DNA from: Felis catus
Taxonomy: Eukaryota
Length of the DNA: 64,000 bases
Direction: 5' to 3'
Assembly (NCBI RefSeq): GCF_018350175.1
Contig: NC_058368.1
Span: 82,710,001-82,774,000 of the forward strand
This document shows positions 35,922-63,576 of the stretch, one piece after another. Numbering within the stretch: the stretch's first letter is position 1; every line of letters begins with the position of its first letter. The notes beneath the pieces are model-generated. The model was not told where the DNA came from. It saw only the letters and a list, made by a program, of their open reading frames with translations, and searched no databases. A program made the position numbers and the translations under genes.

Positions 35922-38900
35922 TTCTTTATCCAGCAAGGCTGTCATTCAAAATAAAAGGAGAGATAAAAAGTTTCCCAGATGAACAAAAATTAAAGGAGTT
36001 TGTGACCACTAAACCAGCCCTGCAAGAAATTTTAAGGGGGACTCTCTGAGGGGAGAAAAGATGAAAAAATATATATAAAAATAAATAAATACCAAAAGCA
36101 ACAAAAGATTAGAAAGGACCAGAGAACACCACCAGAAACTCCAGCTCTACAAGCATCATAATGACAATAAATTCACATCTTTCAGTACTCACTCTAAATG
36201 TCAGTGGACTCAATGCTCCAATCAAAAGACATAGGGTAACAGAATGGATAAGAAAACAAGATCCATCTATATGCTGCTTACAAGAGATCCACTTTAGACC
36301 TAAAGACACCTTCATTGAAAATAAGGGGATGGAGAACCATCTATCATGCTAATAGTCAACAAAAGAAAGCCGGAGTAGCCACACTTACATCAGACAATCT
36401 AGACTTTAAAATAAAGACTGTATCAAGAGATGCAGAAGGGCATTCTATCATAATCAAGGGGTCTATCCACCAAGAAGACCTAACAATCGTAAACATTTAT
36501 GCTCTAAATGTGAAACCCCCCAAATATATAAATCAACTAATCACAAACATAAACTCATCAATAGTAATACCATAATAGGAGGGGACTTCAACACCCACTT
36601 ATAGCAATGGACAGATCATCTAATCAGAAAAATCAACAAGGAAACAATGGCTTTGAATGACACACTGGACCAGATGGACTTAACAGATATATTCAGAACA
36701 CTTCATCCTAAAGCAGCAGAATATGCATTCTTCTTCAGTGCACATGGAACGTTCTCCAGGATAGACCATATACTGGGACACAAATCAGCCTTAAGTAAGT
36801 ACTAAAAGATTGAGATCATACTGTGCATATTTTCAGACCATAACGCTATGAAAGTCAAAATTAACCACAAGAAAAAGTTTGGAAAGGTAACAAATACTTG
36901 GAGACTGAAGAACATCCTACTAAAGAATGAATGGGCTAACCAAGCAGTTAAAGAGAAAATTAAAAAGTATATGGAAGTCAATGAAAATCATAACACCACA
37001 ACCCAAAACCTCTGGGACGCAGCAAAGGCAGTCATAAGAGGAAAGCATATAGCAATCCAAGCCTTCCTAAAGAAGGAAGAAAGATCTCAGATACACAACC
37101 TAACCTTACGCCTTAAGGAGCTGGAAAAAGAACAGCAAATAAAACCCAAAACCAGCAGAAGACAGGAAATAATAAAGATTAGAGCAGAAATTAATGCTAT
37201 CGAAACCAAAAAACAGTAGAACAGATCAATGAAACCAGAAGCTTGTTCTTTGAAAGACTTAACAAAATTGATAAACCACTAGCCACTTTGATCCAGAAGA
37301 AAAAGGAAAGGACCCAAATAAATAAAATCAAGAATAAAAGAGGAGAGATCACAACCAACAAGCAGAAATAAAAACAATAATAAGAGACTATTAGGAGCAA
37401 CTATATGCCAATAAAATGGGTAATCTGGGAGAAATGGACAAATTCCTAGAAACATATACACTACCAAAACTGAAAAAGGAAGAAATAGAAAATTTGAACA
37501 GACCCACAACCAGTAAAGAAATCGAATTAGTAACCAAAAATCTCCTCCCAAAAACCCAAGAGTCCGGGGCCAGATGGCTTTCCAGGGGAATTCTACCAAA
37601 CATTTAAGGAAGAGTTAACACCTATTCTCTTGAAGCTGTTCCAAAAAATAGAAATGGAAGGAAAACTTCCAAACTCTTTCTATGAAGCCAGCATTACCTT
37701 GATTCCAAAACCAGACAGAGACCTGACTGAAAAGGAGAACTATAGCCCAATTTCCCTGACGAACATGGATGCAAAAATCCTCAACAAGATATTAGCCAAT
37801 TGGCTCCAGCAATACATTAAAAAAATATTCACCATGACCAAGTGGGATTTATACCTGGGATGCAGGGCTGGTTCAATATCTGCAAAACAATTAATGTGAT
37901 TCATCTCATCAATAAAAGAAAGGACAAGAACCATATGATCCTCTCAATAGATGCAGAGAAAGCATTTGACAAAATACAGCATCCTTTCTTGATAAAAACC
38001 CTCAAGAAAGTAGGGATAAAAGGATCATACCTCGAGATCATAAAAGCCATATATGAACGACCCAACGCTAATATCATCCTCAATGGGGAAAAACTGAGAG
38101 CTTTCCCCCTAAAGTCAGAAACAAGACAGGGATGTCTGCTCTCACCACTGTTATTCAACATAGTGTTGGAAGTCTTAGCCACTGCAATCAGACAACACAA
38201 AGAAATAAAAGGCATCCAAATTGGCCAGGAGGAGGTCAAACTTTCACTCTTTGCAGATGACATGATACTCTATGTGGAAAACCCAAAAGATTCCACCAAA
38301 AAACTGCTAGAATTGATTCATGAATTCAGCAAAGTGGCAGGATCTAAAATCAATGCAGAGAAATTGGTTGCATTCCTATACACCAACAATGAAGCGACAG
38401 AAAGAAAATCAAGGAATCGATCCCATTTATAATTGCACAAAAAAACCATAAAATATCTAGGAATAAATCCAAGCAAAGATGTGAAAAATCTATGCACTGA
38501 AAACTATAGAAAGCTTATGAAAGAAGTTGAAGAAGACACACAAAAAAATGGAAAAATATTCCATGCTCCTGGGTAGAAAGAACAAATATTGTTAAAATGT
38601 CAATACTATCCAAACCAATCTACGTATTCAATGCAATCCCTATCAAAGTAACGCCAGCATTCTTCACAGAGCTAGAACAAATAATCCTAAAATTTTTATG
38701 GAACCAGAAAAGACCCTGAATAGCCAAAGCAATCGTGAAAAAGAAAACCAAAGCAGGAGGCATCATAATCCCAGACTTCAAGCTGTACTACAAGGCTGTA
38801 ATCATCAAGACCATATGGTACTGGCACAAGAACAGACACTCAGATAAGTGGAACAGAATAGAGAACCCAGAAATGGACCCACAAACGTATGGCCAACTAA

Positions 38901-40216
38901 TCTTTGACAAAGCAGGAAAGAATATCCAATGGAATAAAGACAGTCTCTTCAGCAAGTGGTGCTGGGAAAACTGGACAGCGACATGCAGAAGAACAAACCT
39001 GGGCCACTTTCTTACACCATACACAAAAATAAACTCAAAATGGATGAAAGACCTGAATGTAAGACAGGAAACCATCAAAATCCTCGAGGAGAAAGCAGGC
39101 AAAAACCTCTTTGATCTTGCCCACAGCAACTTCTTACTCAACATGTCTCCAGAGGCAAGGGAAACAAAAGCAAAAATGAACTACTGGGACCTCATCAAAA
39201 TAAAAAGCTTCTGCACAGTGAAGGAAACAATCAGCAAAACTATAAGGCAACCAACAGAATGGGAGAAGATATTTGCAAATGACATACCAGATAAAGGGTT
39301 AGTATCCAAAATCTATAAAGAACTTATCAAACTCAACACCCAAAAACAAATAATCCAGTGAAGAAATGGGCCAAAGACATGAATACACACTTCTCCAAGG
39401 AAGACATCCAGGTGGCCAACTGACACATGAAAAAATGCTCAACATCACTCATCACAGGGAAATACAAATCAAAACCACAATGAGATACCATCTTACACCT
39501 GTCAGAATGGCTAACATTAACAACTCAGGCAACAACAGATGTTGGCAAGGATGTGGAGAAAGAGCATCTCTTTTGCATTGTTGGTGGCAATGCAAGCTGG
39601 TGCAGCCACTCTGGAAAACAATGTGGAGGTTCCTCAAAAAACTAAAAATATAACTACCCTACAACCCAGCAATTGCACTACTAGGCATTTATCCACGGGA
39701 TACAGGTGTGCTGTTTTGAAGGGACACATGCACCCCCATGTTTATAGCAGCACTGTCAACAATAGCCAAAGTATGGAAAGAGTCCAAATGCCCATCGATG
39801 GATGAATGGATAAAGAAGATGTGGTATATATATACAATGGAGTATTACTTGGCAATCAAAAAGAATGAAATCTTGCCATTTGCAACTATGTGGATGGAAC
39901 TGGAGGATATTATGCTAAGTGAAATTAGGCAGTCAGAGAAAGACAAAAATCATATGACTTCACTCGTATGAGGACTTTAAGAGACAAAACAGATGAACAC
40001 AAAGGAAGGGAAACAAAAATAATATAAAAACAGGGAGGGGGACAAGACAGAAAAGACTATAAATATGGAGAACAAACTGAGGGTTGCTGGAGGGGTTGTG
40101 GGAGGGGGAATGGGCTAAATGGGTAAGGGGCATTGGGAATCTACTCCTGAAATCATTGTTTCACTATATGCTAACTAATTTGGATGTAAATTTTAAAAAA
40201 TAAAAAATAAAATTAA
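35922..40216 (+). mobile_element. carnivore L1, 5'-truncated in ORF1 (ORF1 3' end, entire disrupted ORF2, 3'UTR, A tail)
   Basis: ORF2 starts MTINSHLSVLTLNV at 36161; EN, RT (LFADDMILY) and C-terminal motifs broken by frameshifts and stops; 18-bp TSD aaaaatgaataaa(t/c)gtta at 35904-35921 and 40217-40234. Confidence 0.97.
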
Positions 40217-40725
40217 AAAAATGAATAAACGTTAAAAAAAAGTTGTGGGATTAGTATCAGATATTATGATATTTAAGACTTTTCTACTTTGGGCAAGTGA
40301 ATTTTCATAACTTTCTTATGCTATTACCTGTTTATTCATATACATTTGTGTATTTATATTTTTCATATTATTACATCATGATAACACTTCCTCCACTGTG
40401 TTAGATTTGGGATTACATGAGATAATGTGTTTAAAACACAGGGAGTAGTACATTATACTAAATACTGCATCACCCAATAACAACTTAAAGAATGAATGGA
40501 TGAATGCAAATATTGAATCTTACCTTACTGGCTAGGTGTTGAATCCTAAACTAAGACGTGGTTTTCAGAGTTAAAAAGGTTCATAACCAAAAATGACTAT
40601 CAGTATATTTAGGAGCTTCCTTGATGGTCTCAGGAGTCTACTTAAATCCTATATAATCCTATAAACAATAATATATCATTTCTTTGGAATAGCTGCTGTA
40701 GGAAATAGATTCTTATCCCATGAGG

Positions 40726-40940
40726 GTTTTTTTTTTTTTTAATGTTTATTTAGTTTTGAGAGAGCAAGAGACCGAGAGAGAATGAGAGGGGGAGGGACAG
40801 AGAGAGAAGGGGACAGAGGATCCAAAGCAGCCTCTGTGCTGACAGCAGAGAGCCTGACACAAGGCTCGAACTCATGAACCGTGAGATCATGACCTGAGCC
40901 AAAGCTGGATACTTAATCGACTGAGCCATCCAGGTGCCCC
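40726..40940 (-). mobile_element. Can-SINE
   Basis: reverse-complement SINE. Confidence 0.92.
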
Positions 40941-41222
40941 ATGGTCTGAGTTTTTTATAGGGCTTTCTTAGTCTGTACTTTTATTACTCCTCTGCCTCTG
41001 GTTGCATCTGAAAGGTCTGCCCTCCCCATCCCAAGGCTATCCTCCAGCAAGGAGTGGGTACATCACGGGCTATGGTGCTGGAAAGAACAGACAAGATGGT
41101 CTGGGAAGGGTGGTCCATGTACTTTAAATTGGTTTCAAGTAGGAAGGGTGGGTTTTCTCTGATCCTATTTCCTACCCTGTGTAATAAAGGCATGCCTTTG
41201 GGTGACTGACTTGGTTAAGCAG

Positions 41223-41570
41223 TGTGGAGGGCAGAGTAACAGCCCCAAAGATACCAAATTTCTGACCTAGTGAATGTTGTTTCAAATGGCAAAAAGGACT
41301 TTGCAGAGGTGGTTAAGGATTTTAAAGAAGGCAAATGTCCAGGGTTATTTGGGTGGGTGCAATGTAATCCCAAGGGTCATCATAAATGAAAGAGAGAGGT
41401 AAGAAGATCAAAGTCAAAGAGAGATTTGAAGATGGATAATGAAGCCATGCAGGCGGCCTCTAGAAGCTGGAAAAGCCCAAGAATTGGATTCTTCCCTAGA
41501 CCCTCTAGAAGGAAAACAGCACTGTCAACACCTGGATGCTAGTCAGGTGAGACTTATTTCAGGTACTGAC
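41223..41570 (+). mobile_element. MLT1-type (MaLR) LTR fragment
   Basis: tgtggagggcagagtaacagcccc...ggcaaaaaggactttgcag...ctctagaagctggaaaag motifs. Confidence 0.75.
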
Positions 41571-41828
41571 TAGAGATTAGGAAACAAAATTAAAACTTTG
41601 CCCAAGTGTGGTTTGACTAATAAAGGAAATTCTATTTATTTTCCTTTCCTCACATTCATCCCTAGCATTTGCCTTCAAGGAACACACAGACTTCAGTGAT
41701 ATGGAAAAAAGAACAGGCAGTTACCATCGTGTTTCTATGAGGAAAATACAGAGTGTTACTAAAAAGTATAGGAGGGACACACAATCCCAACTTGGGGAGC
41801 TCAAAGATTTCCTAAATGAAATGGCCAT

Positions 41829-42287
41829 TGTATTAATCTGAGTTTCCCAGAGAAATGGAGCCATGGAGAGAGGAGAGTGTGTGTGTGTGTGTGTGTGTGT
41901 GTCTGTGTGTGTACATATATAATTTATTATAAGGAATTGTCTAATGCAGTTATGGAGGCTGAGAAGTCTCAAGTCAGTAAGCTGGGGACCTGAGAGGACC
42001 AATGGTGTGAGTTTCTCTGAGTCTGAGTCCCAAGGCTGAAGATCAATGTCTCAGCTCAAGCAGTTAGGAAGAGACTAAATTCTCTTTTACTCTGCCTTTT
42101 TGTTCTATTCAGGCCTTTAATAGATTAGATGAGGCCTACCCTTATTGGGGACGGCAATCTATTTACTCAGTCTACTGATTCAAATATTAGTTTTGTCCCA
42201 AAACCTCACAAACATACCCAGTATCATGTTTGACCAAAAATATGGGCATCCTGTGCTCCAAACTGACACATAAAATTAACCATCACA
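41829..42287. mobile_element. MLT2-type (ERVL) solo LTR containing a (TG)n microsatellite (~41877-41912)
   Basis: tgtatta...ccagagaaa start, acataaaattaaccatcaca end; 5-bp TSD gccat / gccac. Confidence 0.85.
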
Positions 42288-42869
42288 GCCACTCAGGTAT
42301 GACGTGAAGGATTAGTTTGTATAGCATCATAATCCAGCTTGGTCCGATGAATATAACATGAAACATTTTTCGTGAAATATTTGTTCATAAAAAGAACAAA
42401 GCAGGTTCTGACAGGGAAATATCTCTAACGTATACAAGTGAACAAGGCAATTCTCAGAGTTATTACACATTACATCATCATGTTTTAGAAAAGAAAGATG
42501 TTTGTAAATGTGTATATGTACATTCAAAGCACAGAAAGGAGAGTATAAAGTGTATAACAATAATTGACAGTGATTCTTTCTGGGAAGATGTGAAGGAAAG
42601 GGAAAGATACAGAAGAAGAAATTTCAACATGTTACCAGTGTATGTGCATGCATAGAAAAAGACATGGCAGATTACTCACAGAAGTGTTAAGAGAAGAATT
42701 TTTGAGTGAGTGGGATTCTTTATGGGTAGTTTTATATTCTTTTAGTTATTCTGCATTTTCTTTCTTTTTTAGGCCTTTTATTTATAAAGGTTTTAGCTAC
42801 CTTTAAAAGGTAATACATGTACATAGTCTGAAATTCAAAAGGCACAAGATACCTAGGGAAAATCCTCCC

Positions 42870-43560: not shown

Positions 43561-43719
43561 CGCCAGTGGAATCAGGGTGTGTGGTCCTTGGGGGGCTGGC
43601 GTCCCTCACTAAGCAGGTGCCAACACTTCCCTTTCATTGCCGAATCCCACTCCATTCAAAGTTTTAACTGGCCAGCCCTTTTAGCTTACTTGTTTTTGGT
43701 CTCGGCTTCCTCTACCTAG

Positions 43720-44520
43720 GGCTTCGGGCCCTAGGGCCGCAAGACAACATGACGGGGAAGCGTGGCGACCCCCGCGGCGATCCCGGAGGCGGGCCACCCC
43801 CCTTCACGCCCCCGCTGCCACCCGGCTGCCGGCCTCGAGCGCCCCGCCCCCCAGAACGAGCTAAAGAGCGAACGGCGCCCGGACACAACAACCGGCCGTG
43901 CTACCAGAGCCCTCCAGTCGGGAGAAAAGGCGTCCGTGGTCCCCAAACCCCGGCAACCTAAGGGTCACGGGAGCGCGCCGGAACCATCAGCGCGCCCCCA
44001 GTATCTGGAGCCGGAGGGAACGCGTTTGCGGAGGACTTCCGGGGCGGGGCCTGGCGGGAGCGGAAGATCCCGGCGGCTCCGGACAGGGAGCTGGCAACAG
44101 CTGTGCGGGCTCGGGGCGGGCCAGGCCGGCAGCGGGAAGGAGGGCGCGCGCGGGGGCAGTGGACCACGCTCTGCCGGATTCTCCGGCCGCGCGGCCATGA
44201 ACCTGGAGCGGCTGCGGAAGCGTGTCCGGCAGTACCTGGACCAGGTGGGCGGCCCAACCCGGGGAGCGCAGGCCCCGGGGCTCGTTGAGGCCAGCGCGCC
44301 CGAGCCCTTGCCCGCAGGGTAACTGTCGTCAGGGTCTTGCTGGCGCTTCGTCCGGCGGGGCCTGGGCTGAAGCCCCGGAAGGGAGGGAGGCAGCCCCTCA
44401 ACCCTCTCTGCATCTGGGAGGATGAGGAGCCCTGGGAGCGCAAGCCACCAAAGCGCAGCGCGAGCTTTACACGTGTTGACTCCCGCTCTGCAGCCGTCCT
44501 AACAGCTGCGCGCAGTGGGT
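43720..44520 (+). promoter_or_regulatory. CDC16: CpG island / TATA-less promoter of CDC16
   Basis: Abrupt GC- and CpG-rich block around exon 1. ETS/GABP-type site ACTTCCGG (44035-44042, CCGGAAGT on - strand) abuts GC box GGGGCGGGGC (44041-44050). Second GC box near 44113-44121. Confidence 0.9.
44197..44244 (+). CDS. CDC16: CDC16 exon 1 (coding part) MNLERLRKRVRQYLDQ
   Basis: gcggccATGa start context; donor cag|gtgggc. Confidence 0.97.
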
Positions 44521-47500
44521 GCTCAGTACAAACTTACTGCTCAGTGGAAGTTAAAGGGTTATTTTAGGAGGAAAGTTGCAGGATGGCCTTTGAATTTACC
44601 TAGCTAATGGAAAAGTTTCGAGAAGCTTAGTTGTAATTCTTATTTGGCAGAATTTAAGTGAATAAAGATACAAACAAGCCTGTTGTGTCAAATCAGTACT
44701 TTAACAAATTCATGTTGGGACGCCTGGATGGCTCAGTCGGTTGAGCCACACGGACTTCAGCTCAGGTCATGATCTCAGGGTTTGTGAGTTCGAGTCCCGT
44801 GTAGGGCTCTGTGCTGACAGCTCAGAGCCTGGAGCCCGTTTCAGATTCTGTGTCTCCCTCTCTCTCTGCCCCTCCCCTGTTCATGCTCTGTCTCTCTCTG
44901 TCTCAAAAATAAATAAACGTTAAAAAAATTAAAAAAAATCATAAATTATCTACTGTCTTAGATACCTGCTTATACATTTTTACAATGTATAAGTTTAAAA
45001 AAATCCTACCTTCTTGAGCTGTATGTATCAAAGAGCCTACAATAATGTTTTTGTACCTTTGAACCAAAACTCACCTAGCTGAGATGTAAAATGGAGATAA
45101 GATTGGTAGACCTTTGCTACATGTAAAAAATTGTATTAAGATGTTGATTTATTATATAGCATTCTAACGATATTAGATATCTGTTTAAAACTATTGAAAT
45201 AACAAGGTGGTTACTTTTTATGTTTTGATACAGCAACAGTATCAAAGTGCTCTATTTTGGGCAGATAAAGTAGCTTCACTCTCTCATGGTAAGTGACAAC
45301 TTGAAATTTTTTTTTCTGATTTCTATGTTTTAAAAACTTTTCTATCTTTCCTTGTGCCTCTGACCATTTATGTAATTTTTTTCCTTCCAGAGGAACCCCA
45401 GGACATTTATTGGTTGGCTCAGTGTCTTTACCTGACAGCGCAATATCACAGAGCAGCTCATGCACTTCGGTCACGAAAACTGGACAAAGTAAGTGATTGT
45501 GTGAACTTTAAAGCTTCCCAAACTTTTCAAAAATGCTGTTAGATGAGGGGCACCTGGGTGGTCAGTTGTTTAAGTGTCCGACTCTTGGTTTCAGCTCAAG
45601 TCATGATCCCATGGTTTGTGAGTTCGAGCTCTGCATCGGACTCTGCACTGACAACATGGAGCCTGCTTGGAACTCTCTCTCTCCCTCTCTACCCCTCTTG
45701 AGCCCTTTCTCTGTCTCTCTCAAAATAAATAAACTTAAAAAAAAAATGAAAGGTATTAATTAAAAAAATATCATTAGATTAAATGTCAAAGTTATTTAAA
45801 AGGATTCAATTTTTCTTATTGAATGTAAAGAAAAATTTTCTTATTCCTAATCTCAGTCACTTTTGTCCCCCAATCTAATCACTCAGTTTTGAAAATTCTG
45901 TTTTCTAAGTAACTCTGAAATTATGGATATTCTTTTCCATTTCATTACTGCTCATACATGTCAGGCCTTTAATTTGTCTGTTTTGTTTTAGCTTCTTGTC
46001 TCTTTTCTTTGATAATATCTTTCCCACTTCCATTTTCCCTGACTCTTTTTAGCAGTCTTTTAAACTATCACAAGAGTGGTCTTCCTAAAACACAGAAACA
46101 CAGACCTGATTATAGCACTGACAGTATCAATCAGTGATTTCCCACCGCCTGCATAGGCACCAGAGTCCCTGTGGTTTCTCTCCATCGGTGTCGAACCCAC
46201 CACCACCACCAGTACAAGTAACGTGCAAACTGTCTGCAGTCCCATAGAGGAGTGTCCCTGCTCAGTGCCTGGAATGCTGGCTAGCCCCTCCACCTCTGTC
46301 CCTTGCACATGTTTTCTTAACTGCTAGTACTTTTATGCCGTTCTTCCAGAGTTTATATAGTTTACGTCTCACGAGTACTGTGTTTGCGTCTTCTTGCCGT
46401 AACCTCCTTAACAGATTGTTTTCTCTCCTAGCTGTATGAAGCATGCCGCTACCTCGCAGCTAGATGCCATGTAAGTATGCCATCTGTTTTAATTTTCTTG
46501 GTAAAAGTTTAATTATGTTGCTGTTATACAGAAATCTGGTGGTGGAGCTGGCAGGTTAGTAAAGTATTCATGAGGAAGTGTTCTTTTCTTTAGTATTGTG
46601 TGCTATAAAATATTGATTCTCTATTTACCAATGCCTGACATGCATGAAGAAAACTCTGCCTTAGAATTTGAAATTTTAAGCTCTACATTTTAAATATAAG
46701 TAATGAGTAGGTATATTCTATGACCCTTTTAAAATTGACAGTATTTGCTTGTATGTCTAGTGTTCGAAGTGATAGGTGATAAACAGTAGTTCTGGCTTTT
46801 GCACAACACAGTATGCTGCGAAAGAGCATCAGCAGGCACTTGATATTCTTGACATGGAGGAGCCAATCAACAAAAGGTTATTTGAGAAGTACTTGAAGGA
46901 TGAAAGTGGCTTGAAAGACCCCTCCAATGACTGGGAAATGTCACAGTCCTCCGTAAGTAATTCTGCAATAAGCATACTTCAGTAACATCAGTAAGAATTA
47001 CTCACACGACATGCAAAACATAAATCACTTTCTTTTATTTCAGTATCACCATGTTAAAACAGTTCAGTTGCCAACTTACTTAATTTGCCACTGAAACACA
47101 AGAAGATTCCGAGACATTTCTGAGTCATTAGATGGAAGCTATAGCTATGTCCTCATATGCTTGAGTCTGAAATAGGCTGACTTGAGAGCTTTCTTCTCAT
47201 ATTTGATGCCTTAAATTACTCCCACAGATGGAATAACCTTTCCCTTTCTTACTGTGTTTCAATACCTACCCCAGGAAACCATAGTTTGCTTCTTTCCAGG
47301 GAGTGGTTTGGTGTTACTCTTTATGTAATTTGTTTACTTCAGTTTGTATACTTCATATCTGCCTGAAATTGCAAATTCCTTGTTGGCAGAGATTATATAA
47401 TGTAACATAATAAATGACATTCACAGATTACTAATCTCAACTGTTATTATTTTTTCTTTTTTTCTGGTTTTTTTGTTTTTTTGACAGCCTTCTTGAGACT

Positions 47501-47648
47501 ATTTATGTGCTAAGGAGCACGTTTATTTTTCTGCTAATAAAGGTATTTATGAGGGAGTCTGGTATTACCATTATTATTTTTGGACTACTTACCATTTACC
47601 TGCTAAGAAATACATGGTTTGTTTGTAATGCATTATTTATCTTATGAA

Positions 47649-47684
<36 letters not shown>

Positions 47685-50600
47685 TACAAGTCATAAGATA
47701 CTGCATTGGTGTAAGATTCTCTTGTTACATCCTCTTATTTTTAAGTTTGGATTTTATGATGAATCTTCTTTGTCCCTTTACCAGTTTTAGCTGCCCGTCT
47801 CTGGATCATCTGTAGATTTAGTTGCATGTTTCTTAAGGCTCAGAGTCTAGAATCTAGGTTGGATTGCTGCCCACATCCTCTTGTTAGTGGTAGTGGTGAG
47901 GTGGCTACTCTGTGAACACCTCACATGTACTCGCTTTGCAGAAGACTAGCACCTCTGCTTCTTACAGGGCCCTGTAAGTTAGATGAGGAAAGGAAACTTG
48001 TCCAGGGTCACTAGGAAGCATCAGAGCTGGGGTTTTAACTCAGGTCTGTCCAATGCTACAAGTTCATGACCCTAATCGTGGTACCTTATTGCCACCAGTT
48101 TTTCAGTGTTTATTACTAAGATCCTTTCATTGCGATCCGCCTATCAAACTGTCTGAGTTTAATTTAATATTTGTATTCTGCTTGCTATCTAAATCATTAC
48201 CCTCTTTGAGACAGAACCGATAAGGACCCAAGTAGCAGTGATGTGCTGTAGTTCTAAAGATTGTTGAAGTGAGGAGTGCCTAGGGAAGATAGAGAAGTTT
48301 TACTTCGCTTTCCTGTTTCTGTTAATTTGTTGGGATTGAATAAATTATTTTAGAGGTCAGGAGAAGTCTCAGCCTTAAGATAATAGATCATTCTGATCAA
48401 AAATTAAATTTCGACGTATTGATTTAGTACATGACTCATCATATTTTTCCAACAGATAAAGAGTTCTATTTGTCTTTTACGAGGGAAAATCTATGATGCT
48501 CTGGATAACCGAGCCCTAGCTACCTATAGCTACAAAGAAGCTTTGAAGCTGGATGCCTACTGTTTTGAAGCATTTGATCTTTTAACATCACACCACATGT
48601 TGACAGCTCAAGAAGGTTTGGAAACTCAGGTGTTTTCATGTTTAGCACAATTAATATCATTTGGATTTTTTTTCTCTGAAACCTTTACAGTCAAGAGCAG
48701 ACTATGCATGTTTAAACAGACCTGAAGCACATTGCATAGGACGGTGGTGGATTGTGCAGTGCCCTTTGCTGTCAGAATCTTTAGGGTTGTGATGTGGTGA
48801 GGCCATCTTTTTGGGAAGTAACTTGAGGTAGTGTAAACCAAGATCTCAGTATCTGATTCAGAGATGCCCAACATGCTTTACCTCAAAGCCTTTAACAACA
48901 TCAGGGTGCAGGTCCCAGCTCCAGACAAGTGGAATGGAATCTCTGGCAGTGGGGCCCTGGCGTCAGATGTTTTAAAGCTCTCAGATGACCCTAAGGTGCA
49001 GCTAGGCTGAGAACCAACCACAGACCTAGTATGTCAGCAGTAATGTGAGGTGGATATGTGCAAGAAACACAGAGAAAATAGGGATGTTGTGTTAGTGGGG
49101 TTCAAGCACATTTTAGTCTATCTAGTGTAGTAGTTCTCAGGTTGATTTTGTGCCCTAGGGACACTTGATTTTTATAAATTGGGGACGGGATGGGAGGTTG
49201 CTAATGGCATCTAGTGGGTGGAGGTCAGAGATCCTGCTAACCATCCTGTGGTGGTGTGGGACAACCAACCGACAGAATTATCCACACAGAGTGTCAGCAG
49301 TGCTGAGGCTGGGAAACTGGCCGGGTGGTTCTTGGATCTGGTGGTGACCAGAATCGCCTAAAAGGCTTCATGGCTCAACCCTCCAGGTGGTTCTTATCAC
49401 CTGGGTCTGGAACCACTGTCTTAGATTTTCAAGTATATTTTGATCTTGTTATTCTCTCTTTTGAGTTTGATTTACTTAGACCAAGAACTTTAGAATATTT
49501 TTTATTGAAGCCTTTTTACCCCCATAAATACTGTGAGGACATTCTTTTTTCTTAACATTTTTAAGAGAAAGAACTTCTTGAGTCACTACCTCTTAGCAAG
49601 CTCTGTACTGAAGAACAGGAATTGCTACGCTTTCTATTTGAGAACAAATTAAAAAAGGTGAGTAAAAACACAAAATTAGTTTTGCTTTATGTAACTATTT
49701 TACTAAATTTGGCATCTATTCTTTTACTAGTTAAATTTTTAAAACTTAATTTTTATTAGCACATTTGCAAGAATAGATGATATGATTCCTTAAAAAGCAT
49801 CCAAAAACATGTCTTTTTTCTAGGGATTCCTTATGCTAAAAGATTGAACTGTAACATAAGTGGGACGTTGTGTGAAAATGAGGATTTTTTTCTTATGCTT
49901 AGTGAACTTTTTTTTTTTAATTTTTTTTATTTTTCAACGTTTACTTATTTTTGCGACAGAGAGAGACAGAGCATGAACGGGGGAGGGACAGAGAGAGAGG
50001 GAGACACAGAATCCGAAACAGGCTCCAGGCTCCGAGCCATCAGCCCAGAGCTTGACGTGGGGCTCGAACTCCCGGACCGCGAGATCGTGACTTGGCTGAA
50101 GTCGGACGCTTAACCGACTGCGCCACCCAGGCGCCCCTGAACTTTTTTTTTTTTTAATTTAATTTATTTCTGAGAGAGAGAGAGAGACAGAACATGAGCG
50201 GGGGAGGGGCAAAGAAAGAGGGAGACACAGAATCTGAAACAGGCTCCAGGCTCTGAGCTGTCAGCACAGAGCCTGACGTGGGGCTCGAACTCAGAAACTG
50301 TGAGATCATGACCTGAACCGAAGTTGGATGCTCAACTGACTGAACCACCAGGCACCCCTGAACTTCTGATTTGTAAAATACTTCCTGCCCTGGAATTCCG
50401 TGATAAAATTGAGAAGAGAGTCCAGCTGATTGAGAGGAGGGCTGATAAGATATAAAGTCAGGGCTCCCAGAGGTTCACACCTGCCCTGTGTAAACCCTTG
50501 AGCCATTGGGCCAGATCGAGTCTGCCATTTGATTTGTACTGCACATTGGGTTCATGTTTCCCTTTCTCTGTTGCAGTATAATAAACCCAGTGAAACTGTC

Positions 50601-53600
50601 CTCCCCGAGTCTGTAGATGGTTTGCAGGAGAATCTGGATGTGGTAGTGTCTTTGGCTGAAAGACATTATTATAACTGTGATTTTAAAATGTGCTACAAGC
50701 TTACTTCTGTGTAAGTATATCCACTTATTTCTGTGTAGGAGCATAGAGTCCATTCTCATTTTACCTAGGAAGTATGTAGGGCTGCTTTGTGAATAAGCTT
50801 GAACTAATTGGTGATAATTGAAGTTGCCTTTACAATTTGCAGAGTTTAATAGAAGGGTTATTGTTATCTTAAAAGAGCAATTTACAGACACAGGTTTATG
50901 GGCACTTATCGGTTTAGTCCATTGCCTTGGGAATAGACAATTCCCTCATCTCAGTGTTTTATAATTTGCAAATTTGAAAATACCATTCTGGCACATAGTC
51001 TCATAAAATCCCTTCTTTGTTAAAGTAGGGACTAGTCAAATCCTGTAGATGCTGGGTGCTCAGTCAGGCTTAGTAAGTAGCTAAGCCATCTCCCTGCTGC
51101 CCCCACCATACCAGTTTTCATGATTCAAACTTGTAGCTAAATTACATATGCTATTTTTAACAGATCTTTGGGATTACTTAACATCCTTGAATTCACAAAA
51201 ATATTAATTGACAAATACGATCTGTTTAATATTTCATATTGTTTTTAATCCTTCTTAGTAATTAGACTGCTTATTTTGTAATTCTGTTGATTTAAAATAA
51301 ATGTATGTGATAGTGTTTATTTTTATTCCTTCTAAATAAACCAGAATTTTCCCTTTCATTTATAAGATAATCATTACCTTAATTGAGCCAACCTGAAGGT
51401 AATGGAGTTAAAAAAGTAAAAAAAGTATTTTACATAAAGATGTAATGACTGTTTAGACATAGCTATTTTAATGCGGTATGTTCTGTTATGTATTGCTTCT
51501 GGCATGGTAAATGTTGCTTTGACTTTCAGAGTAATGGAGAAAGATCCTTTCCATGCAAACTGTTTACCTGTACATATAGGGACACTTGTGGAGCTGAATA
51601 AAGCAAATGGTAATTTTTTTTAAATCAAAATAATAATTGTTAAGACAAAAAAATTTTCTGTAACTTGAAATTATGTCTCACAAGTCCTGGATAATTGAGA
51701 TTGCAGTTAACAACATAATGGAGTTCTCTGACAAAAGTAACAGCTAGTGTAAGAAAAGCTTATCAGAGTGACTGAGGATCAATTCTCTTACGCCTACAGA
51801 ACAGTGTTTGTTTTCCCTTGCTTCCTGTTGTCAATTGTACTTTATGGTTTAAGTTGTATAAGCTTTAGAGTATCGGCAGATAGTTTTTCTTTTTTTTGTA
51901 AAATCCTAAGAAAACTGATAGAAAACTGATAGAAAATAGTTTAGAAACTGGGTGGGGGCAAAGTTTTTGCTTGTGTTTCCTATACTTTAACATTTCAGAA
52001 ACAATTTAGTTATGTTTGGATGTTATTTCCCCTTAAATCTTTTAAGCTGTGTCAGGAGTTTAAAAAGCTGACACTCCAATTCCAAACCCCTGCTGCTCCG
52101 GGTGTGGTCTATGGACCAGCAGCATCACATCTCCTAGAAGCTTGTTGGAGATGCGGACACTCCGGCTGTGCTGGTCTAATGGATCCAAATCTGCACATAG
52201 GAAACTTCATTATGATGTGTTAGGACTTACACGTTACTCAAGAAGAAATCATCTTGCTGATTTGAAACTTGAAAGTTTGATCACTCAAATTGGTTATGGG
52301 TAGTTAAGATGGTCCATAATAAGGGCACAGAGTGTGTGATACCAGTTATGAAGATAAGCGACGAGCTTTGAAATTACTTCTCAAGCACCATGACGTGCTT
52401 TATCATGAGAGACTCATCCAGTTTTCCAGTCACTCCAGAAGCACTCAGTGTCCACTTGTAGGGTAAGAGGTTGGTGGGGGGCTGTGAATGAAACAACTGT
52501 AGTAGTTGTATATTTTATTAAGTAAATAGAAAACTATGAAAGTGTTACTATGAGAATAAATTTGTTTGATCGTGAAGAGTTGTAACTAGAGGAAAGTCAT
52601 ATCTTAAAATTGACTGGATCTAATTCTTTTTTTTCTTTTTTTTCTTTTTTTAATGTAGAACTTTTCTACCTTTCTCATAAATTGGTGGATCTGTATCCTA
52701 GTAATCCTGTAAGTAAATGTAAACCTTTTTTTCTTATGGTGTTTTTTTCTTACCTGAACTCTAAAAAAATACTTAACTGGCTTTTAGGTAGTAACTTATA
52801 TTTAAGTTCAAGCAAATAATGTTTATTTACTTATTTTTATTTATTTATTTATTTATTTTTTTACATTTATTTATTTTTGAGAGACAGAGTGAGACAGGGT
52901 GCAAGCAGTGGAGGGGCAGAGAGAGAAGGAGACAGAATCCAAAGCAGGCTCCAGGCTCTGAGCTGTCAGCACAGAGCCTGACACGGGGCTCGAACCCACG
53001 AACCATGAGATCACAACCTGAGCCAAAGTCGGATGTTCAGCCAATTGAGCCACCAGGCACCCCCAAATAATGTTTATTTTAAGGTGTTGGAGGAGGACCT
53101 CCTAGTGCTATGATAATTAGAAGTAGCGTTAGCTTTTCAATCCATGAAAGTATTTTTTTTAAGTGTCTTGAAACAATAGCTTAAAACAAAAATCCTTTTA
53201 TTCTGGTTACAGAAATAATATATGCTTATTTTAATATACTTGATATACAGAAAAATAAAATGTTGAAAATGAAAGTCATACTCTCACCTCTCGTAAGTGA
53301 TGCTAATAATTACTTGGTGGCTTCCTCACCTTGCACGTACAGCATAACTTACTGAATTGTGCAGTAGTTGGGTCATTGGGTCTCTTAGGCTACCTTGGAA
53401 CACAACTGGGACCCAGAGATTAAAACTAATTCAGGAACTGTGTCCTTAGAGACAGAAGTTAGGGATCAAAGCCTAAGCCTCACCCAAGAATCTCTGCTCT
53501 TGGCCAGTATGAAAATAATTTAGAAAGAGGCAGAATCAGTGCAAGAGAAGTCTGCTAATGAGGTCGAGCCTGCATAGTGCTGGTGAGAACCTGGGTGGAG

Positions 53601-55818
53601 CCAGGGAGGACACGACTCAGGCTGGTGTTTGTACCAAGTGTGAAGGAACCTCATCTTGTATCGAATGCTGCAGGGACATCGTTGAAGGCACTTTGAGGAA
53701 GAATCTGTTCTTTTTTCATCTAGGACCCTTAGTAGACAGCCTGTCTCAGAGAAGTTTCTAACTTGAACTAGAATAACTTGAGCTAGAACACATAATGGAA
53801 TGTGTAGTCCACCCTCTGGCCTGGTATGTTAGAGATTTCCAGTTCCAAGTCAAGCATCTTTGGTCACAGTAAATTTTGAACTTTTTAGGTGTCTTGGTTT
53901 GCAGTGGGATGCTATTATCTCATGGTTGGTCATAAAAATGAACATGCCAGAAGATACCTCAGGTATGGATCTGTTGTCTTTCTCCCTCTGTAATGAGCCT
54001 ATAGTAAGGGATTTCTTGTTCATCCTTTTTAATACGATAATTAAGTACTTTAAAAGCAGTATGAAAGAATAATTTTTTTCAGATTCAGTTCAGTTGCATC
54101 AATTATGTACCTTTTTTTTTTTAATGTTTATTTATCTTAGAGTGAGAGAGAGTGCACACATGAGAGCAGGGGAGCGACAGAGAGAGAGTGAGAGAGAGAA
54201 TTCCAAGTAGGCTCTGCCCTGTCAGCACAGAGCCTGACGTGCGGCTCAAATTCACGAACTGTGAAATCGTGACCTGAGCCAAAATCAAGAGTCAGCTGCT
54301 TAATTGACTAAGCCACCCAGGTGCCCCAGTTACATACCTTTTAATAAGATGTCATGAGGGGATATAAAAGTCAGTGGTATAGACCTTATTCTCAAGGAAT
54401 TTACTATGTGTGTAAATTATAAGTGAGAAAAAACATGAAACAATAATAGACGTTTGGAAGGTCCTGTTTTTCATTTACAGAGATACTCGGCACCTTTTAA
54501 CTTTAGGACTTCTTTTGTTAATACTTGTGAAATTACATGAAACTACATGAGATTAGGGTCACTAAATGTGACTATAAAACAGAATTCTTGTCATAGTGAA
54601 CTGGTTTCTATAAGGATCTGCTGTGTGCAGCCCAGTCAAGCTACTTTATAAGTGTGATTTCAGCCACATGAACAAACTGGGAAAGTGGATCTAAGAAAAA
54701 GTGTGTAAACTTTGGACATAGATTTGAATTCTAATACAAGCCCTACCACTTGCTAGCTGTAATTCCTTGGGAAAGTTAATAACCTCTGACCCTCTCTTTT
54801 TTAAAAATGGGAATGATACAATACTTGTATCCCAGGATTGTTAGGAAAATTGGTAGGATGACTCATAAGGATCCTGCACTCGGAAAAACAGGGAGTTCTC
54901 TGGTCAGTTGAATGTTAAGCATTTTAGAAGAACTTGCTTGTGCTTTTTCCTGGAGTAGGCAGATGATTCAGATGTGATAATTCCTCTGAACTGTGCTTCT
55001 CTGATTTAGTGATGGACTCCATGTGAATCAAGGAACATTTGAGTGATAGAAAACTTAGAAAATAAAATGCTGGGAAATGGGCATCTCATCGTTTATATTT
55101 TCCTTGTTTTGTGGTGTGTTCTCTTTATTCTGGGTGTCCTGGGTCACCGGGTGTCTGCTGATTGAAGACTACTTATGACGGCTTAGACTGTGTGGTGCAG
55201 TCTGCAGGACCAGGGTGTTCTCCTGCTGCCGTCCACAGGGTGTCACTTAATCTTCCCAGCCTCAGTATACTGATGTTTAAAATACAAATAACGATTTATC
55301 TTGTAAGTTACTAGGTGATGCACATGAAGCATTTCACATGGAGTCTGGTGTAAAATATGCCCTCATTAAATGGTTGTTGCTACCACAATTACTGAAACAA
55401 AGCTCTTGGATTAAGTAATATTTGTAAATTCAGAGTGTATTTGTATTTGTAAATACAGAGTGCCAGTGGGTTCAACTATTGGACCTAAAAAGTTGTGGAC
55501 CTCTCTTAAAATGTCTTAAAATTTTGCTTGTACTATTAAACATTCTTTTATTTCAAATGAGATTAACAATTGTTATGTAAGTATTTAATATGTTAAGAGC
55601 TCATTTATTTAATTCCAATATCCTTGAAGCTATCAGCTTATATAAAATTAACAAGAATGAATCTCTCACTAGAATGACGTTTCTTGTTTCAGCAAAGCGA
55701 CAACACTTGAGAAGACTTACGGGCCTGCGTGGGTAGCGTACGGACACTCATTTGCAGTTGAGAGCGAGCATGACCAGGCCATGGCTGCTTACTTCACAGC
55801 CGCGCAGCTCATGAAAGG
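44197..55818 (+). CDS. CDC16: CDC16 / APC6 (anaphase-promoting complex TPR subunit), coding exons 1-12; 3' exons lie beyond the window
   Basis: Twelve exons with GT-AG boundaries join in frame (48+55+98+39+141+160+92+134+80+50+74+126 = 1097 nt). The product is MNLERLRKRVRQYLDQQQYQSALFWADKVASLSH...AMAAYFTAAQLMKG, recognised as mammalian CDC16. Confidence 0.98.
44717..44938 (+). mobile_element. Can-SINE in CDC16 intron 1
   Basis: complete SINE body and tail. Confidence 0.95.
45234..45288 (+). CDS. CDC16: CDC16 exon 2 QQYQSALFWADKVASLSH
   Basis: acceptor gatacag|, donor g|gtaagt. Confidence 0.96.
45391..45488 (+). CDS. CDC16: CDC16 exon 3 EEPQDIYWLAQCLYLTAQYHRAAHALRSRKLDK
   Basis: acceptor ttccttccag|, donor |gtaagt; phases match neighbouring exons. 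Confidence 0.97.
45547..45746 (+). mobile_element. Can-SINE in CDC16 intron 3
   Basis: SINE body and tail. Confidence 0.92.
46432..46470 (+). CDS. CDC16: CDC16 exon 4 LYEACRYLAARCH
   Basis: acceptor ttctctcctag|, donor |gtaagt. Confidence 0.96.
46812..46952 (+). CDS. CDC16: CDC16 exon 5 YAAKEHQQALDILDMEEPINKRLFEKYLKDESGLKDPSNDWEMSQSS
   Basis: acceptor caacacag|, donor |gtaagt. Confidence 0.97.
47649..47684. repeat. (ATT)12 microsatellite, CDC16 intron 5
   Basis: direct count. Confidence 0.97.
48456..48615 (+). CDS. CDC16: CDC16 exon 6 IKSSICLLRGKIYDALDNRALATYSYKEALKLDAYCFEAFDLLTSHHMLTAQE
   Basis: acceptor tttttccaacag|, donor g|gtttgg. Confidence 0.96.
48880..49020. mobile_element. MER5-type hAT DNA transposon relic
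   Basis: gaatctctggcagtggggccctggc...ttttaaagctctcagatgacc...ggctgagaacca. Confidence 0.65.
49126..49320. mobile_element. MER20-type DNA transposon relic
   Basis: tagttctca...ggcatctagtgggtggaggtcagagatcctgcta...cagtgctgaggctgggaaact. Confidence 0.75.
49566..49657 (+). CDS. CDC16: CDC16 exon 7 EKELLESLPLSKLCTEEQELLRFLFENKLKK
   Basis: acceptor atttttaag|, donor |gtgagt. Confidence 0.96.
49908..50358 (-). mobile_element. two tandem antisense SINEs in CDC16 intron 7: young SINEC_Fc-type (49908-50137) and Can-SINE (50143-50358)
   Basis: tgaactt occurs at all three junctions, consistent with sequential insertion at the same target. Confidence 0.95.
50577..50710 (+). CDS. CDC16: CDC16 exon 8 YNKPSETVLPESVDGLQENLDVVVSLAERHYYNCDFKMCYKLTSV
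   Basis: acceptor ctttctctgttgcag|, donor gt|gtaagt. Confidence 0.97.
51530..51609 (+). CDS. CDC16: CDC16 exon 9 VMEKDPFHANCLPVHIGTLVELNKAN
   Basis: acceptor gactttcag|, donor g|gtaatt. Confidence 0.96.
52659..52708 (+). CDS. CDC16: CDC16 exon 10 ELFYLSHKLVDLYPSNP
   Basis: long T tract then aatgtag|, donor |gtaagt. Confidence 0.96.
52830..53064 (-). mobile_element. Can-SINE in CDC16 intron 10
   Basis: TSD aaataatgtttattt. Confidence 0.94.
53889..53962 (+). CDS. CDC16: CDC16 exon 11 VSWFAVGCYYLMVGHKNEHARRYLS
   Basis: acceptor ctttttag|, donor ag|gtatgg. Confidence 0.96.
54112..54327 (-). mobile_element. Can-SINE in CDC16 intron 11
   Basis: reverse-complement SINE. Confidence 0.92.
55693..55818 (+). 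CDS. CDC16: CDC16 exon 12 KATTLEKTYGPAWVAYGHSFAVESEHDQAMAAYFTAAQLMKG
   Basis: acceptor ttcttgtttcag|, donor gg|gtacgg. Confidence 0.96.
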
Positions 55819-56182: not shown

Positions 56183-56395
56183 TTTTATTTACTTACTTTT
56201 TATTGATTTTTATGAGAGAAAGCATGCGCGTGTGCGCATGAACCAGGGAGGGACGGGCAGAGAGAGAATCCCAAGCAGGCTCTGTGCTGTCATTGCAGAA
56301 GTTGATGCGGGGTTCCATCTCATGACTATGAGATCATGACCTGAGCCTAAATCAGGAGTCAAGACACTTAACCAACTGAGCCACCCAGGTACCCC
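56183..56395 (-). mobile_element. Can-SINE in CDC16 intron 12
   Basis: reverse-complement SINE. Confidence 0.9.
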
Positions 56396-57198: not shown

Positions 57199-57409
57199 TT
57201 TTTTTTAACATTTATTTATTTTTGAGACAATGCGAAAGACACAGTGCAAGCAGTGGAGGGGCAGACAGAGGGAGACACAGAATCTGAAGCGGGCTCCAGG
57301 CTCTGAGCTGTCAGCCCAGAGCCCGACGCGGGGCTCGAACTCACAAACCGTGAGGTCGTGACCTGAGCCGAAGTCGGATGCCCAACCAACTGAGCCACCC
57401 AGGTGCCCC
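57199..57409 (-). mobile_element. Can-SINE in CDC16 intron 12
   Basis: perfect TSD cttgggttgtttctta at 57180-57195 and 57410-57425. Confidence 0.95.
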
Positions 57410-57689
57410 CTTGGGTTGTTTCTTATGAACACAGGCTAGAGTGTGCTTTTTAATTTTATTTATTTTATTTATTTATTTTTTCTGGGTGCTCACAAACCCA
57501 GAATAGTTATTATTTGTCAGTTTCTACCTAACAATCAAAACTAATTACAAAATTTTCCAATGTAACAAACTACATTCAAGTAAATTTTCAAATCCGCTCA
57601 CCAAGATAAGCATTATTCTTTTCATTTCTTCCCCATCAGAACAACTTTGCATTCTCTTAACTTCCCTGTGTTTGGATAAATGTTTGAAA

Positions 57690-59570: not shown

Positions 59571-59582
59571 ACTTAAAAAAAA

Positions 59583-62500
59583 TTTTTTTTTAATTTACAT
59601 CCGAGTTAGCTAGCATATAGTGCAACAGTGGTTTCAGGAGTAGATTCCTTAATGCCCCTTACCCATTTAGCCCATCCCCCCCTCCCACAACCCCTCCAGT
59701 ACCCTTTGTTTGTTCTCCATATTTAAGAGTCTCTTCTGTTTTGTCCCCCTCCCTGTTTTTATATTATTTTTGTTTCCCTTCCCTTGTGTTCATCTGTTCT
59801 GTGCCTTAAAGTCTCATATGAGTGAAGTCATATGATATTTGTCTTTCTCTGACTGACTAATTTCATTTAGCATAATACCCTCTAGTTCCATCCACGTAGT
59901 TGCAAATGGCAAGATTTCATTCTTTTTGATTGCTGAGTAATACTCCACTGTATATGGAAACCACTTCTTTATCCATTCATCCATCGATGGACATTTGAGC
60001 TCTTTCCATACTTTGGCTATTGTTGATAGTGCTGCTACAGATATTGGGGTGCATGTGTCCCTTCGAAACAGCATACCTGAATCCCTTGGATAAATACCTA
60101 GTAGTGCAATTGCTGGGTCGTAGGGTAGTTCTATTTTTAATTTTTTGAGGAAGCTGCATACTGTTTTCCAGAGTGGCAGCACCAGTTTGCATTCCCACCA
60201 GCACTGCAAAAGAGATCCTCTGTCTCTGCATCCTCGCCAACATCTGTTGTTGCCTGAGTTGTTAATGTAAGCCGAATATTCTGACAGGTGTGGTTTTGAT
60301 TTGTATTTCCTTGATGATGAGTGATGTTGAGCATTTTTTCATGTGTTGGTTGGCCATCTGGATGTCTTCTTTGGAGAAGTGTCTATTCATGTCTTCTACC
60401 CGTTTCTTTACTGGATTATTTGTTATTTGGGTGTTGAGTTTGATGACTTCTTTATGGATTTTGGGTACTAACCCATTATCTGATACGTCGTTTGCAAATA
60501 TCTTCTCCCAGTCTGATGGTGGCCTTTTAGTTTTGCTGATTGTTTCCTTCATTGTGCAGAAGCTTTTTATTTTGATGAGGTCCCAATAATTCATTTTTGC
60601 TTTGCCCTTGCCTCTGGAGACGTGTTGAGTAAGAAGTTGCTATGGCTGAGGTCAGAGAGGTTTTTGCCTGCTTTCTCCTCGAGGATTTTGATGGTTTTCT
60701 GTCTCACATTTAGGACTTTCATCCATTTTGAGTTTATTTTTGTGTCTGGTGTAAGAAAGTGGTCCAGGCTCATTTTTCTGCATGTTGCTGTCCAGTTTTC
60801 CCAGCACCACTGGCTCAAGAGACTGTCTTTATTCCATTGGATATTTTCTCCTGCTTTGTCAAAGATTAGTTGGCCATACGTTTGTGGGTCCATTTCTGGG
60901 TTCTCTGTTCTGTTCCATTGATCTGAGTGTCTGTTTTTGTGTCAGTACTGTACTGTCTTCATAATGACAGCTTTGTAATACAGCTTGAGGTCTGGGATTG
61001 TGATGCCCCTTGCTTTGGTTTTCAAGATTGCTTTGGCTATTCAGAGTCTTTTTTGGTTCCATACACATGTTAGGATTGTTTGTTCTAGCTCTGTGAAGAA
61101 TGCTGGTGTTATTTTGATAGGGATTGCACTGAACATGTAGATTGCTTTGGGGATTATCGACATTTTTAACAATATTTGTTCTTCCTATCCAGGAGGAGTC
61201 TTTTTCCATTTTTTTGTGTCTTCTTCAACTTCTTTCATAAGCTTTCTATAGTTTTCAGTGTATAGATTTTTCACCTCTTTTGTTGGATTTATTCCTAGGT
61301 ATTTTATGGTTTTTGATACAATTGTAAATGGGATCGATTCCTTGATTTCTCTTTCTGTTGCTTCGTTGTTGGTGTGTAGGAATGCAACCAATTTCTGTGC
61401 GTTGATTTTAGATCCTGCCACTTTGCTGAATTCATGGTTCATTTCTAGCAGTTTTTTGGTGGAATCATTTGGGTTTTCCATGTAGAGTATCATGTCATCT
61501 GTGAAGAGTGAAAGTTTGACCTCCTCCTGGCCAATTTGGATGCCTTTTATTTCTTTGTGTTGTCTGATTGCAGAGGCTAAGACTTCTAATACTATGTTGA
61601 ATAACAGTGGAGAGAGTGGACATCCCTGTCTTGTTCCTGACCTTAGGGGGAAAGCTCTCAGTTTTTCCCCATTGAGGATGATATTAGCATTGGGTCGTTC
61701 ATATATGGCTTTTATGATCTCGAGGTATGATCCTTTTATCCCTACTTTCTTGAGGGTTTTTATCAAGAAAGGATGCTGTATTTTGTCAAATGCTTTCTCT
61801 GCATCTGTTGAGAGGATCATATGGTTCTTGTCCTTTCTTTTATTGATGGGATGAATCACATTAATTGTTTTGCGGATATTGAACCAGCCCTGCATCCCAG
61901 GTGTAAATCCCACTTGGTTGTGGTCAATGATTTTGTTAATGTATTATTGGATCCCGTTGGCTAATATCTTGTTGAGGATTTTTGCATCCATGTTCATCAG
62001 GGAAATTGGGCTATAGTTCTCCTTTTCAGTCAGGTCTCTGTCTGGTTTTGGAATCAAGGTAATGCTGGCTTCATAGAGTTTGGAAGTTTTCCTTCCATTT
62101 CTATTTTTTGGAACAGCTTCAAGAGAATAGGTGTTAACTCTTTCTTAAATGTTTGGTAGAATTCCCCTGGAAAGCCATCTGGCCCTGGACTCTTGGGTTT
62201 TTGGGAGGAGATTTTTGGTTACTAATTCGATTTCTTTACTGGTTGTGGGTCTGTTCAAATTTTCTATTTCTTCCTTTTTCAGTTTTGGTAGTGTATATGT
62301 TTCTAGGAATTTGTCCATTTCTTCCAGATTACCCATTTTATTGGCATATAGTTGCTCCTAATAGTCTCTTATTATTGTTTTTATTTCTGCTTGGTGGTTG
62401 TGATCTCTCCTCTTTTATTCTTGATTTTATTTATTTGGGTCCTTTCCTTTTTCTTCTGGATCAAAGTGGCTAGTGGTTTATCAGTTTTGTTAAGTCTTTC

Positions 62501-63576
62501 AAAGAACAAGCTTCTGGTTTCATTGATCTGTTCTACTGTTTTTTGGTTTCGATAGCATTAATTTCTGCTCTAATCTTTATTATTTCCTGTCTTCTGCTGG
62601 TTTTGGGTTTTATTTGCTGTTCTTTTTCCAGCTCCTTAAGGCGTAAGGTTAGGTTGTGTATCTGAGATCTTTCTTCCTTCTTTAGGAAGGCTTGGATTGC
62701 TATATGCTTTCCTCTTATGACTGCCTTTGCTGCGTCCCAGAGGTTTTGGGTTGTGGTGTTATGATTTTCATTGACTTCCATATACTTTTTAATTTTCTCT
62801 TTAACTGCTTGGTTAGCCCATTCATTCTTTAGTAGGATGTTCTTCAGTCTCCAAGTATTTGTTACCTTTCCAAATTTTTTCTTGTGGTTGATTTCAACTT
62901 TCATAGCGTTATGGTCTGAAAATATGCACGGTATGATCTCAGTCTTTTTGTACTTACTTAAGGCTGATTTGTGTCCCAGTATATGGTCTATCCTGGAGAA
63001 CGTTCCATGTGCACTGAAGAAGAATGTATATTCTGCTGCTTTAGGATGAAGTGTTCTGAATATATCTGTTAAGTCCATCTGGTCCAGTGTGTCATTCAAA
63101 GCCATTGTTTCCTTGTTGATTTTCTGATTAGATGATCTGTCCATTGCTGTAAGTGGGGTGTTGAAGTCCCCTACTATTACTGTATTACTATCAATGAGTT
63201 TATGTTTGTGATTAATTGACATATATTTTGGGGGGTTTCACATTTGGAGCATAAATGTTTACAATTGTTAGGTCTTTTTGATGTTTAGACCCCTTAATTA
63301 TGATATAATGCCCTTCTGCATCTCTTATTACAGTCTTTATTTTAAAGTCTAGATTGTCTGATATAAGTATGGCTACTCTGGCTTTCTTTTGTTGACAATT
63401 AGCATGATAGATGGTTCTCCACCCCCTTACTTTCAATCTGAAGGTGTCTTTGCATCTAAAGTGGGTCTCTTGTAAGCAGCATATAGATGGATCTTGTTTT
63501 CTTATCCATTTTGTTATCCTATGTCTTTTGATTGGAGCATTGAGTCCATTGACGTTTAGAGTGAGTATTGAAAGAT
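59583..63576 (-). mobile_element. carnivore L1 (nearly whole disrupted ORF2 + 3'UTR), antisense in CDC16 intron 12; same subfamily as 35922-40216
   Basis: ORF2 fragments 62533-63222 (EN), 61185-61913 ([11 protein letters not shown]), 59814-60893; T-rich tail at 59583. Confidence 0.97.

Follow-up and report, generated by a model that had tools for sequence, protein, structure and literature searches.

How did two dead retrotransposon copies come to share a stretch of almost identical sequence, including the same inactivating mutations, when the rest of their length has drifted apart? This question is raised by a 64,000-nucleotide stretch of the Felis catus genome (contig NC_058368.1, positions 82,710,001 to 82,774,000; hereafter the window, in whose coordinates all positions are given). 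The window contains two broken copies of the retrotransposon L1 in inverted orientation, here called arm A and arm B, with coding exons 1-12 of CDC16 (APC6) between them. The original prediction, made from the letters of the window, attributed the shared stretch to gene conversion after insertion, and our analysis agrees. We favor non-allelic gene conversion between the two dead L1s, with a probability of roughly 0.85, because the arms are separate insertions, the near-identity is a bounded tract, and derived changes are shared inside the tract and its neighboring patches and private outside them. Additionally, residual differences have arisen in both arms.

Near-identity is confined to a patchy tract

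Comparison of the window with itself was dominated by a single inverted match, between 36177-40200 and 63576-59584, with 92.4% identity. The arms are ~9% diverged overall, with 265 events in 3993 aligned columns when each indel is counted once, as in all event counts below. These events are unevenly distributed. The 5' part (36177-36602) holds 37 events in 428 columns and the 3' part (38113-40192) holds 197 in 2057, whereas the main homogenized tract (Table 1) differs by only six substitutions, at 37268, 37358, 37429, 37566, 37609 and 37760, and one 4-bp deletion in arm B. The near-identity claimed for 36871-37798 against 61957-62880 is therefore real; the seventh substitution of the original prediction is at 36877. 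The perfect run of 390 bp that had been reported (36878-37267) was reproduced in our pairwise alignment, as were the nine mismatches in 39542-39601, chosen to illustrate the diverged 3' part.

This non-uniformity exceeds chance. In none of 20,000 permutations did an identical run exceed 226 bp, short of the observed 390 bp, and no stretch of 919 columns held fewer than 32 events, compared with the 7 observed. The second-longest identical run among the 296 repeat pairs aligned across the window measures 62 bp. The homogenized region is also wider and patchier than originally described, since two satellite patches flank the main tract and two islands at background divergence interrupt it. With the main tract excluded, a 200-column window with two events or fewer occurred in 7 of 20,000 permutations. 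Divergence is indistinguishable among the three patches (p = 0.92), and the islands fit the background (p = 0.76). Tract divergence is 0.66% (95% range 0.24-1.4%) versus 8.5-9.4% in the remainder of the arms. The simplest reading is one patchy event over ~1.5 kb (36603-38112), though several events close in time may have occurred instead.

The arms are separate insertions

Both arms show the homology to open reading frame 2 (ORF2) endonuclease and reverse transcriptase, the poly(A) tail and the target-site duplication of an L1 insertion. From the endonuclease domain on, they align to the ORF2 proteins of dog and horse, and the alignment with the full-length dog protein extends as far as the C-terminal region. 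The points of 5' truncation differ, and because each arm has its own 5' end and its own target-site duplication, the two are separate insertions, without net inversion.

Beyond the tails of the short interspersed elements (SINEs) in which the arms sit, their flanks have no homology, and the alignment ends where the L1s end. A palindrome or inverted segmental duplication was ruled out by this lack of homology in flanking unique DNA, and the flanks likewise ruled out duplication of one single insertion. Passages of PMC2603318 describe mismatched versus matching target-site duplications as the test for L1 recombination-mediated inversion (L1-RMI). At this locus the duplications match at both arms (17/18 and 14/14), and the SINE split by arm A retains its own 12-bp duplication, which rules out net inversion by L1-RMI.

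We take the SINE split by arm A to be a Can-SINE. Both arms entered A-rich SINE tails, and arm B, its SINE and the older L1 around them form three nested layers. Other, mostly older L1 fragments in the window (19682-21916, 11636-12429, 13779-14929 and 1-478) match the arms at 68-87%, and no close one among them spans the tract.

Table 1. Features of the inverted L1 pair and its surroundings (window coordinates; residues numbered as in dog ORF2 protein).
Feature	Coordinates	Strand	Remarks
L1 arm A	35922-40216	+	5'-truncated in ORF1, ORF2 broken, poly(A) tail; sits in A-rich SINE tail
L1 arm B	63575-59587	-	5'-truncated at ORF2 start, ORF2 broken; sits in tail of another SINE
Main homogenized tract, arm A	36878-37799	+	7 events in 919 columns
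Main homogenized tract, arm B	61957-62874	-	partner of arm A 36878-37799
5' satellite patch	36603-36802	+	partner ~63148-62950; 2 events in 200 columns
3' satellite patch	37907-38112	+	partner 61848-61643; 2 events in 206 columns
Unconverted island	36803-36877	+	7 events in 75 columns
Unconverted island	37800-37906	+	13 events in 108 columns
Four ORF2 lesions common to both arms	37200-37560	+	frameshifts at ~353 and ~404; stop at 415; net 4-bp insertion at 464-467
Arm A target-site duplication	35904-35921 / 40217-40234		18 bp, 17/18 matching
Arm B target-site duplication	63589-63576 / 59586-59573		14 bp, 14/14 matching, low complexity
SINE split by arm A	35720-35921	+
12-bp duplication of arm A's SINE	35708-35719 / 40243-40254		encloses SINE and L1
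SINE hosting arm B in its tail	63590-63765	-	itself within older L1 fragment, as read from the sequence
CDC16 (APC6) coding exons 1-12	44197-55818	+	located between the arms

Derived changes are shared inside the tract and private outside it

To compare lesions between the arms, we scored ORF2 against a dog ORF2 protein (P0084), whose residue numbers are used throughout. The three lesions named in the original prediction, a frameshift ending in ...KKQ*, a TAG stop and an odd segment, occur in both arms. A further shared frameshift, at residue 404, had been missed and is a 1-bp loss at 37361 in arm A and 62391 in arm B. Counting frameshifts and stops, four are shared and one is private within the tract, compared with 2 shared and 20 private outside it (Fisher p = 0.004). 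Removing three slippage-prone lesions left this contrast at p = 0.03. The indels were polarized as derived by distant L1 DNA.

As evidence, the named lesions are of unequal value. Residue 415, the site of the stop, is tyrosine in 105 of 113 related fragments, and 89 of 89 are in frame at residue 404. The lesions at 415 and 404 are not the family state; proteins cannot reveal stops, hence these counts carry the point no further. The ...KKQ* frameshift and the odd segment are weak markers, as they fall in slippage-prone A-runs, and the odd segment is weakened again by its presence on a different upstream haplotype in P0266, a protein considered below. In these A-runs (37200-37216 and 37536-37560, residues 353 and 465), related L1 fragments very often vary in length or grow short microsatellites.

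Residue changes gave a broader comparison. Close relatives were collected as proteins, 26 of 240 being at least 79% like arm B, with 120 more among the matches listed, and residues were polarized at columns with a clear majority among related L1 fragments. Within the tract, 16 departures from the majority are shared and 5 are private in 286 columns (3 and 0 of 105; 13 and 5 of 181). The shared tract residues are present in 0-9% of related fragments. Over all low-divergence patches, 18 residues are shared and 6 private, versus 1 and 14 in the other covered parts (p = 4e-5). When 147 fragments were examined for arm-derived residues in the ORF2 frame, five carried two and none carried more, bearing in mind that open-frame proteins hide stops and some frameshifts. 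The six residual tract substitutions, five of them transitions, split evenly against distant L1s, with three derived in A and three in B. Both arms have thus mutated since homogenization.

At the DNA level, a metagenome scan gave 14 loci related to the arms, the best at ~80% over long matches, and viral scans gave one distant locus; no L1 DNA copies came from the prokaryote genome scan or plasmids. The mammalian L1 DNA in public metagenome assemblies (L001-L014) is host or food contamination. Eleven of the 15 loci formed the polarization set, with L012-L015 excluded as short, patchwork or distant; all of them are distant, close relatives being represented by proteins alone. With the 3' patch counted together with the tract, shared changes relative to these distant L1s amounted to 44/679, still a weak excess (p = 0.049). 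The content of guanine and cytosine (GC) in arm A is 36.7% in the tract versus 36.6-38.9% outside, and shared AT-to-GC and GC-to-AT changes number 18 and 7 inside the tract and 15 and 7 outside. There was no signal of GC-biased gene conversion, as the tract shows neither raised GC nor an AT-to-GC excess in this comparison of low power.

CDC16 is enclosed by the pair

The enclosure of CDC16 exons 1-12 by the inverted arms was borne out. All 12 exons have GT donors and 11 join stop-free; exon 4 is 46432-46470, and the exon at 48456-48615 matches human CDC16 residues 128-180 (E 7e-29). Arm B is downstream of exon 12, presumably in intron 12, given the 18-exon structure that we assume for the gene. 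An ordinary CDC16 transcript should not contain both arms, because arm A is 4 kb upstream of the start codon. The arms face each other 19 kb apart, and the tracts are 24 kb apart.

Two tandem SINEs on the minus strand (49907-50360) lie within a CDC16 intron. Elsewhere in the window, the neighboring SINEs at 17348-17584 and 19458-19693, in direct orientation, are 93.2% identical, the top value of 245 SINE-sized pairs (mean 78%). These two may belong to the same young subfamily or may themselves have undergone conversion.

A proposed course and age of the exchange

We propose that two L1s of the same family arrived by separate insertions, in facing orientation with 19 kb between them, and had decayed to ~9% divergence before a germline DNA break occurred in one arm. 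Repair of this break by homologous recombination, with the other arm as template, would have been resolved without a crossover. In a single patchy event, ~1.3 kb would have been overwritten in three patches within 36603-38112, and the two short islands would have been left untouched by patchy heteroduplex repair or template switching. Both arms would then have drifted to their present 0.66% difference. The cis loop envisaged in the original prediction may be one pairing geometry, and pairing between sisters or homologues yields the same product. A crossover between the arms would invert the segment with the CDC16 promoter and exons 1-12 and so separate it from the remainder of the gene. APC6 (CDC16) is essential, and homozygous loss should be lethal. 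Because a crossover would split CDC16, only non-crossover products would persist.

The age of the exchange was estimated from the tract divergence. At a mutation rate of 0.86e-8 per generation and 3.8 years per generation, as given in a portion of bioRxiv 2021.04.06.438608, the tract would be ~1.5 million years old (0.5-3.2). An assumed rate of 1e-9 per year would give 3.3 million years (1.2-7.1). The arms themselves would be 21-47 million years apart, an upper figure that includes differences between the source elements.

Evidence against conversion and alternative explanations

Several observations weigh against conversion between the arms. Mismatch repair is described, in passages of PMC3758752, as strongly suppressing recombination at such divergence. 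In the first third of the tract, 3/105 polarized residues are shared and derived, below the usual load of one copy. DNA-level shared changes relative to distant L1s number 28/464 in the tract versus 36/874 outside (p = 0.14), a weak difference. Two of the shared lesions, a 4-bp deletion at residues 132-134 and a stop at 855, are outside the tract. The deletion (36546-36565 in arm A, ~63200 in arm B) is also outside the homogenized patches, inside a 21-bp identical run, and it recurs in one of the 8 fragments spanning the site, the unlinked P0155. Its presence in both arms may reflect recurrence or an older short conversion. At the A-run of residue 353, 10 of the 12 related fragments reaching it leave the frame, which weakens that lesion as a marker, the length window of the fragment search itself favoring fragments that do so; one of the ten, P0122, exits in the same frame as the arms. 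Past residue 465, 46/114 related fragments are out of frame.

P0266 adds to these points. This ENA protein, encoded on a contig of 595 bp, forms a cluster of 1 member. Its last 31 residues are those of arm A (window 37512-37604), including the odd segment, the neighboring threonine and the allele of A at 37566. Upstream, P0266 is without the other lesions of the tract and shows its own changes. Candidate explanations are a chimera that an assembler built from repeat reads, an orthologue converted over part of the tract, a third copy and a small sub-lineage. P0266 lacks the wider haplotype of the tract, but the odd segment may not be private to the arms.

Could the tract have come to both arms from one common source element, defective or mosaic, by trans mobilization or from a recombinant master, with no later exchange? 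L1 retrotransposition shows cis-preference. The odd segment and threonine of P0266 would fit such a source, as would the deletion in P0155 and the two lesions common to the arms outside the tract. However, P0155 is just 82% like arm B, and the multi-site haplotype is found in no fragment. A shared source also cannot explain the low tract divergence, because the arms elsewhere decayed with private lesions: outside the tract, 20 frameshifts and stops are private to one arm or the other, yet within it the arms differ by 0.66% against 8.5-9.4% elsewhere. We therefore consider this origin very improbable. Conversion of both arms, or of parts of the tract, from a third L1 copy or L1 cDNA would accommodate P0266, in which a portion of the tract haplotype is joined to a different background, and a first third of the tract that is near the family majority. 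Repair of a broken long interspersed element (LINE) from other LINEs in cis or trans is cited in a passage of PMC3055243. Such an origin would require two events with the same donor and the same coordinates, however, and the four ORF2 lesions in the tract are unlike an active donor, leaving it a very small chance.

Conversion might also have accompanied an inversion that later reverted through a second crossover in the arms, as in recurrent human inversions between inverted L1s. The geometry resembles that of HsInv0341, described in part of PMC3961182 as a 20.8-kb inversion flanked by 6.2-kb L1PA3 repeats; passages of PMC5829575 report conversion next to an inversion with L1PA7 flanks; and patchiness could reflect more than one event. 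Against this, both arms retain matching target-site duplications. The inverted state would also split CDC16, a loss expected to be homozygous-lethal, and we find this history highly unlikely. Finally, an assembly or polishing artefact, in which reads of one arm built the tract of the other, is improbable. Between 0.69 and 0.80 of sampled words of 34500-42000 are contained in 24 runs from 11 studies, but tract words would be expected there even with one real copy. Exact look-up of arm-encoded peptides found 0 of 10, including 2 controls outside the tract, and is hence uninformative. The tract is not identical between the arms, and its 7 differences are split between them and resemble real mutations. 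Unconverted islands of 75 and 108 bp break up the tract, and the 16 rare residues would not have survived polishing toward the family majority.

Significance and comparison with known systems

Read as gene conversion between the arms, this locus is an ordinary case of a repair outcome already known, and nothing in it points to a function. The ages and trees of L1s can be distorted by such local overwriting. Frequent conversion of inverted neighbors across ~9% divergence would matter more, if true, as exchanges of this kind are said to be blocked by mismatch repair. Our literature searches, which covered few subscription journals, turned up neither a publication on this locus nor a genome-wide survey of inverted L1 pairs for conversion, and the passages of PMC3215922 consulted were silent on conversion.

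A bolder idea, which we consider unlikely, is that inverted L1 pairs 10-25 kb apart in the cat are overwritten far more often than 9-15% divergence allows, in kilobase-long, patchy and possibly two-way exchanges. If this were true, P0266 would represent an arm from a lineage in which the tract had been exchanged in part only, and the essential CDC16 would purge every crossover, leaving a clean non-crossover record. The 390-bp run, now at the minimal recombination length, would re-arm the pair for an inversion that breaks CDC16. Passages of PMC3758752 give the minimal length for efficient recombination as 132-232 bp in mouse and 337-456 bp in human.

Similar exchanges have been described in other systems. 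Passages of PMC5829575 report conversion between human L1PA3 copies, and a further case next to an inversion whose flanking L1PA7s have opposite orientations. As in the cat, a segment of one L1 was replaced by the corresponding segment of a neighboring one. That change is recent, detected in long reads versus the reference, whereas the cat exchange is older, fixed-looking and patchy, between arms ~9% diverged, and without an inversion. Conversion in Alu and long terminal repeat (LTR) copies is reviewed in PMC6598467, which in the portion consulted cites Aleshin and Zhi 2010; these cases share with the cat arms mosaic identity, shared mutations and neighboring dead copies. The same portion states that the conversion rate depends on distance and identity and is elevated for Alu and at distances within 10 kb, whereas here L1s were involved, with tracts 24 kb apart and ~1.3 kb overwritten. 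L1-RMI, as described in passages of PMC2603318 and for HsInv0341 (PMC3961182), likewise involves an inverted L1 pair with a spacer of 10-40 kb that may include exons. In contrast, L1-RMI proceeds by crossovers that leave mismatched target-site duplications, while in the cat the duplications match and CDC16 is unflipped.

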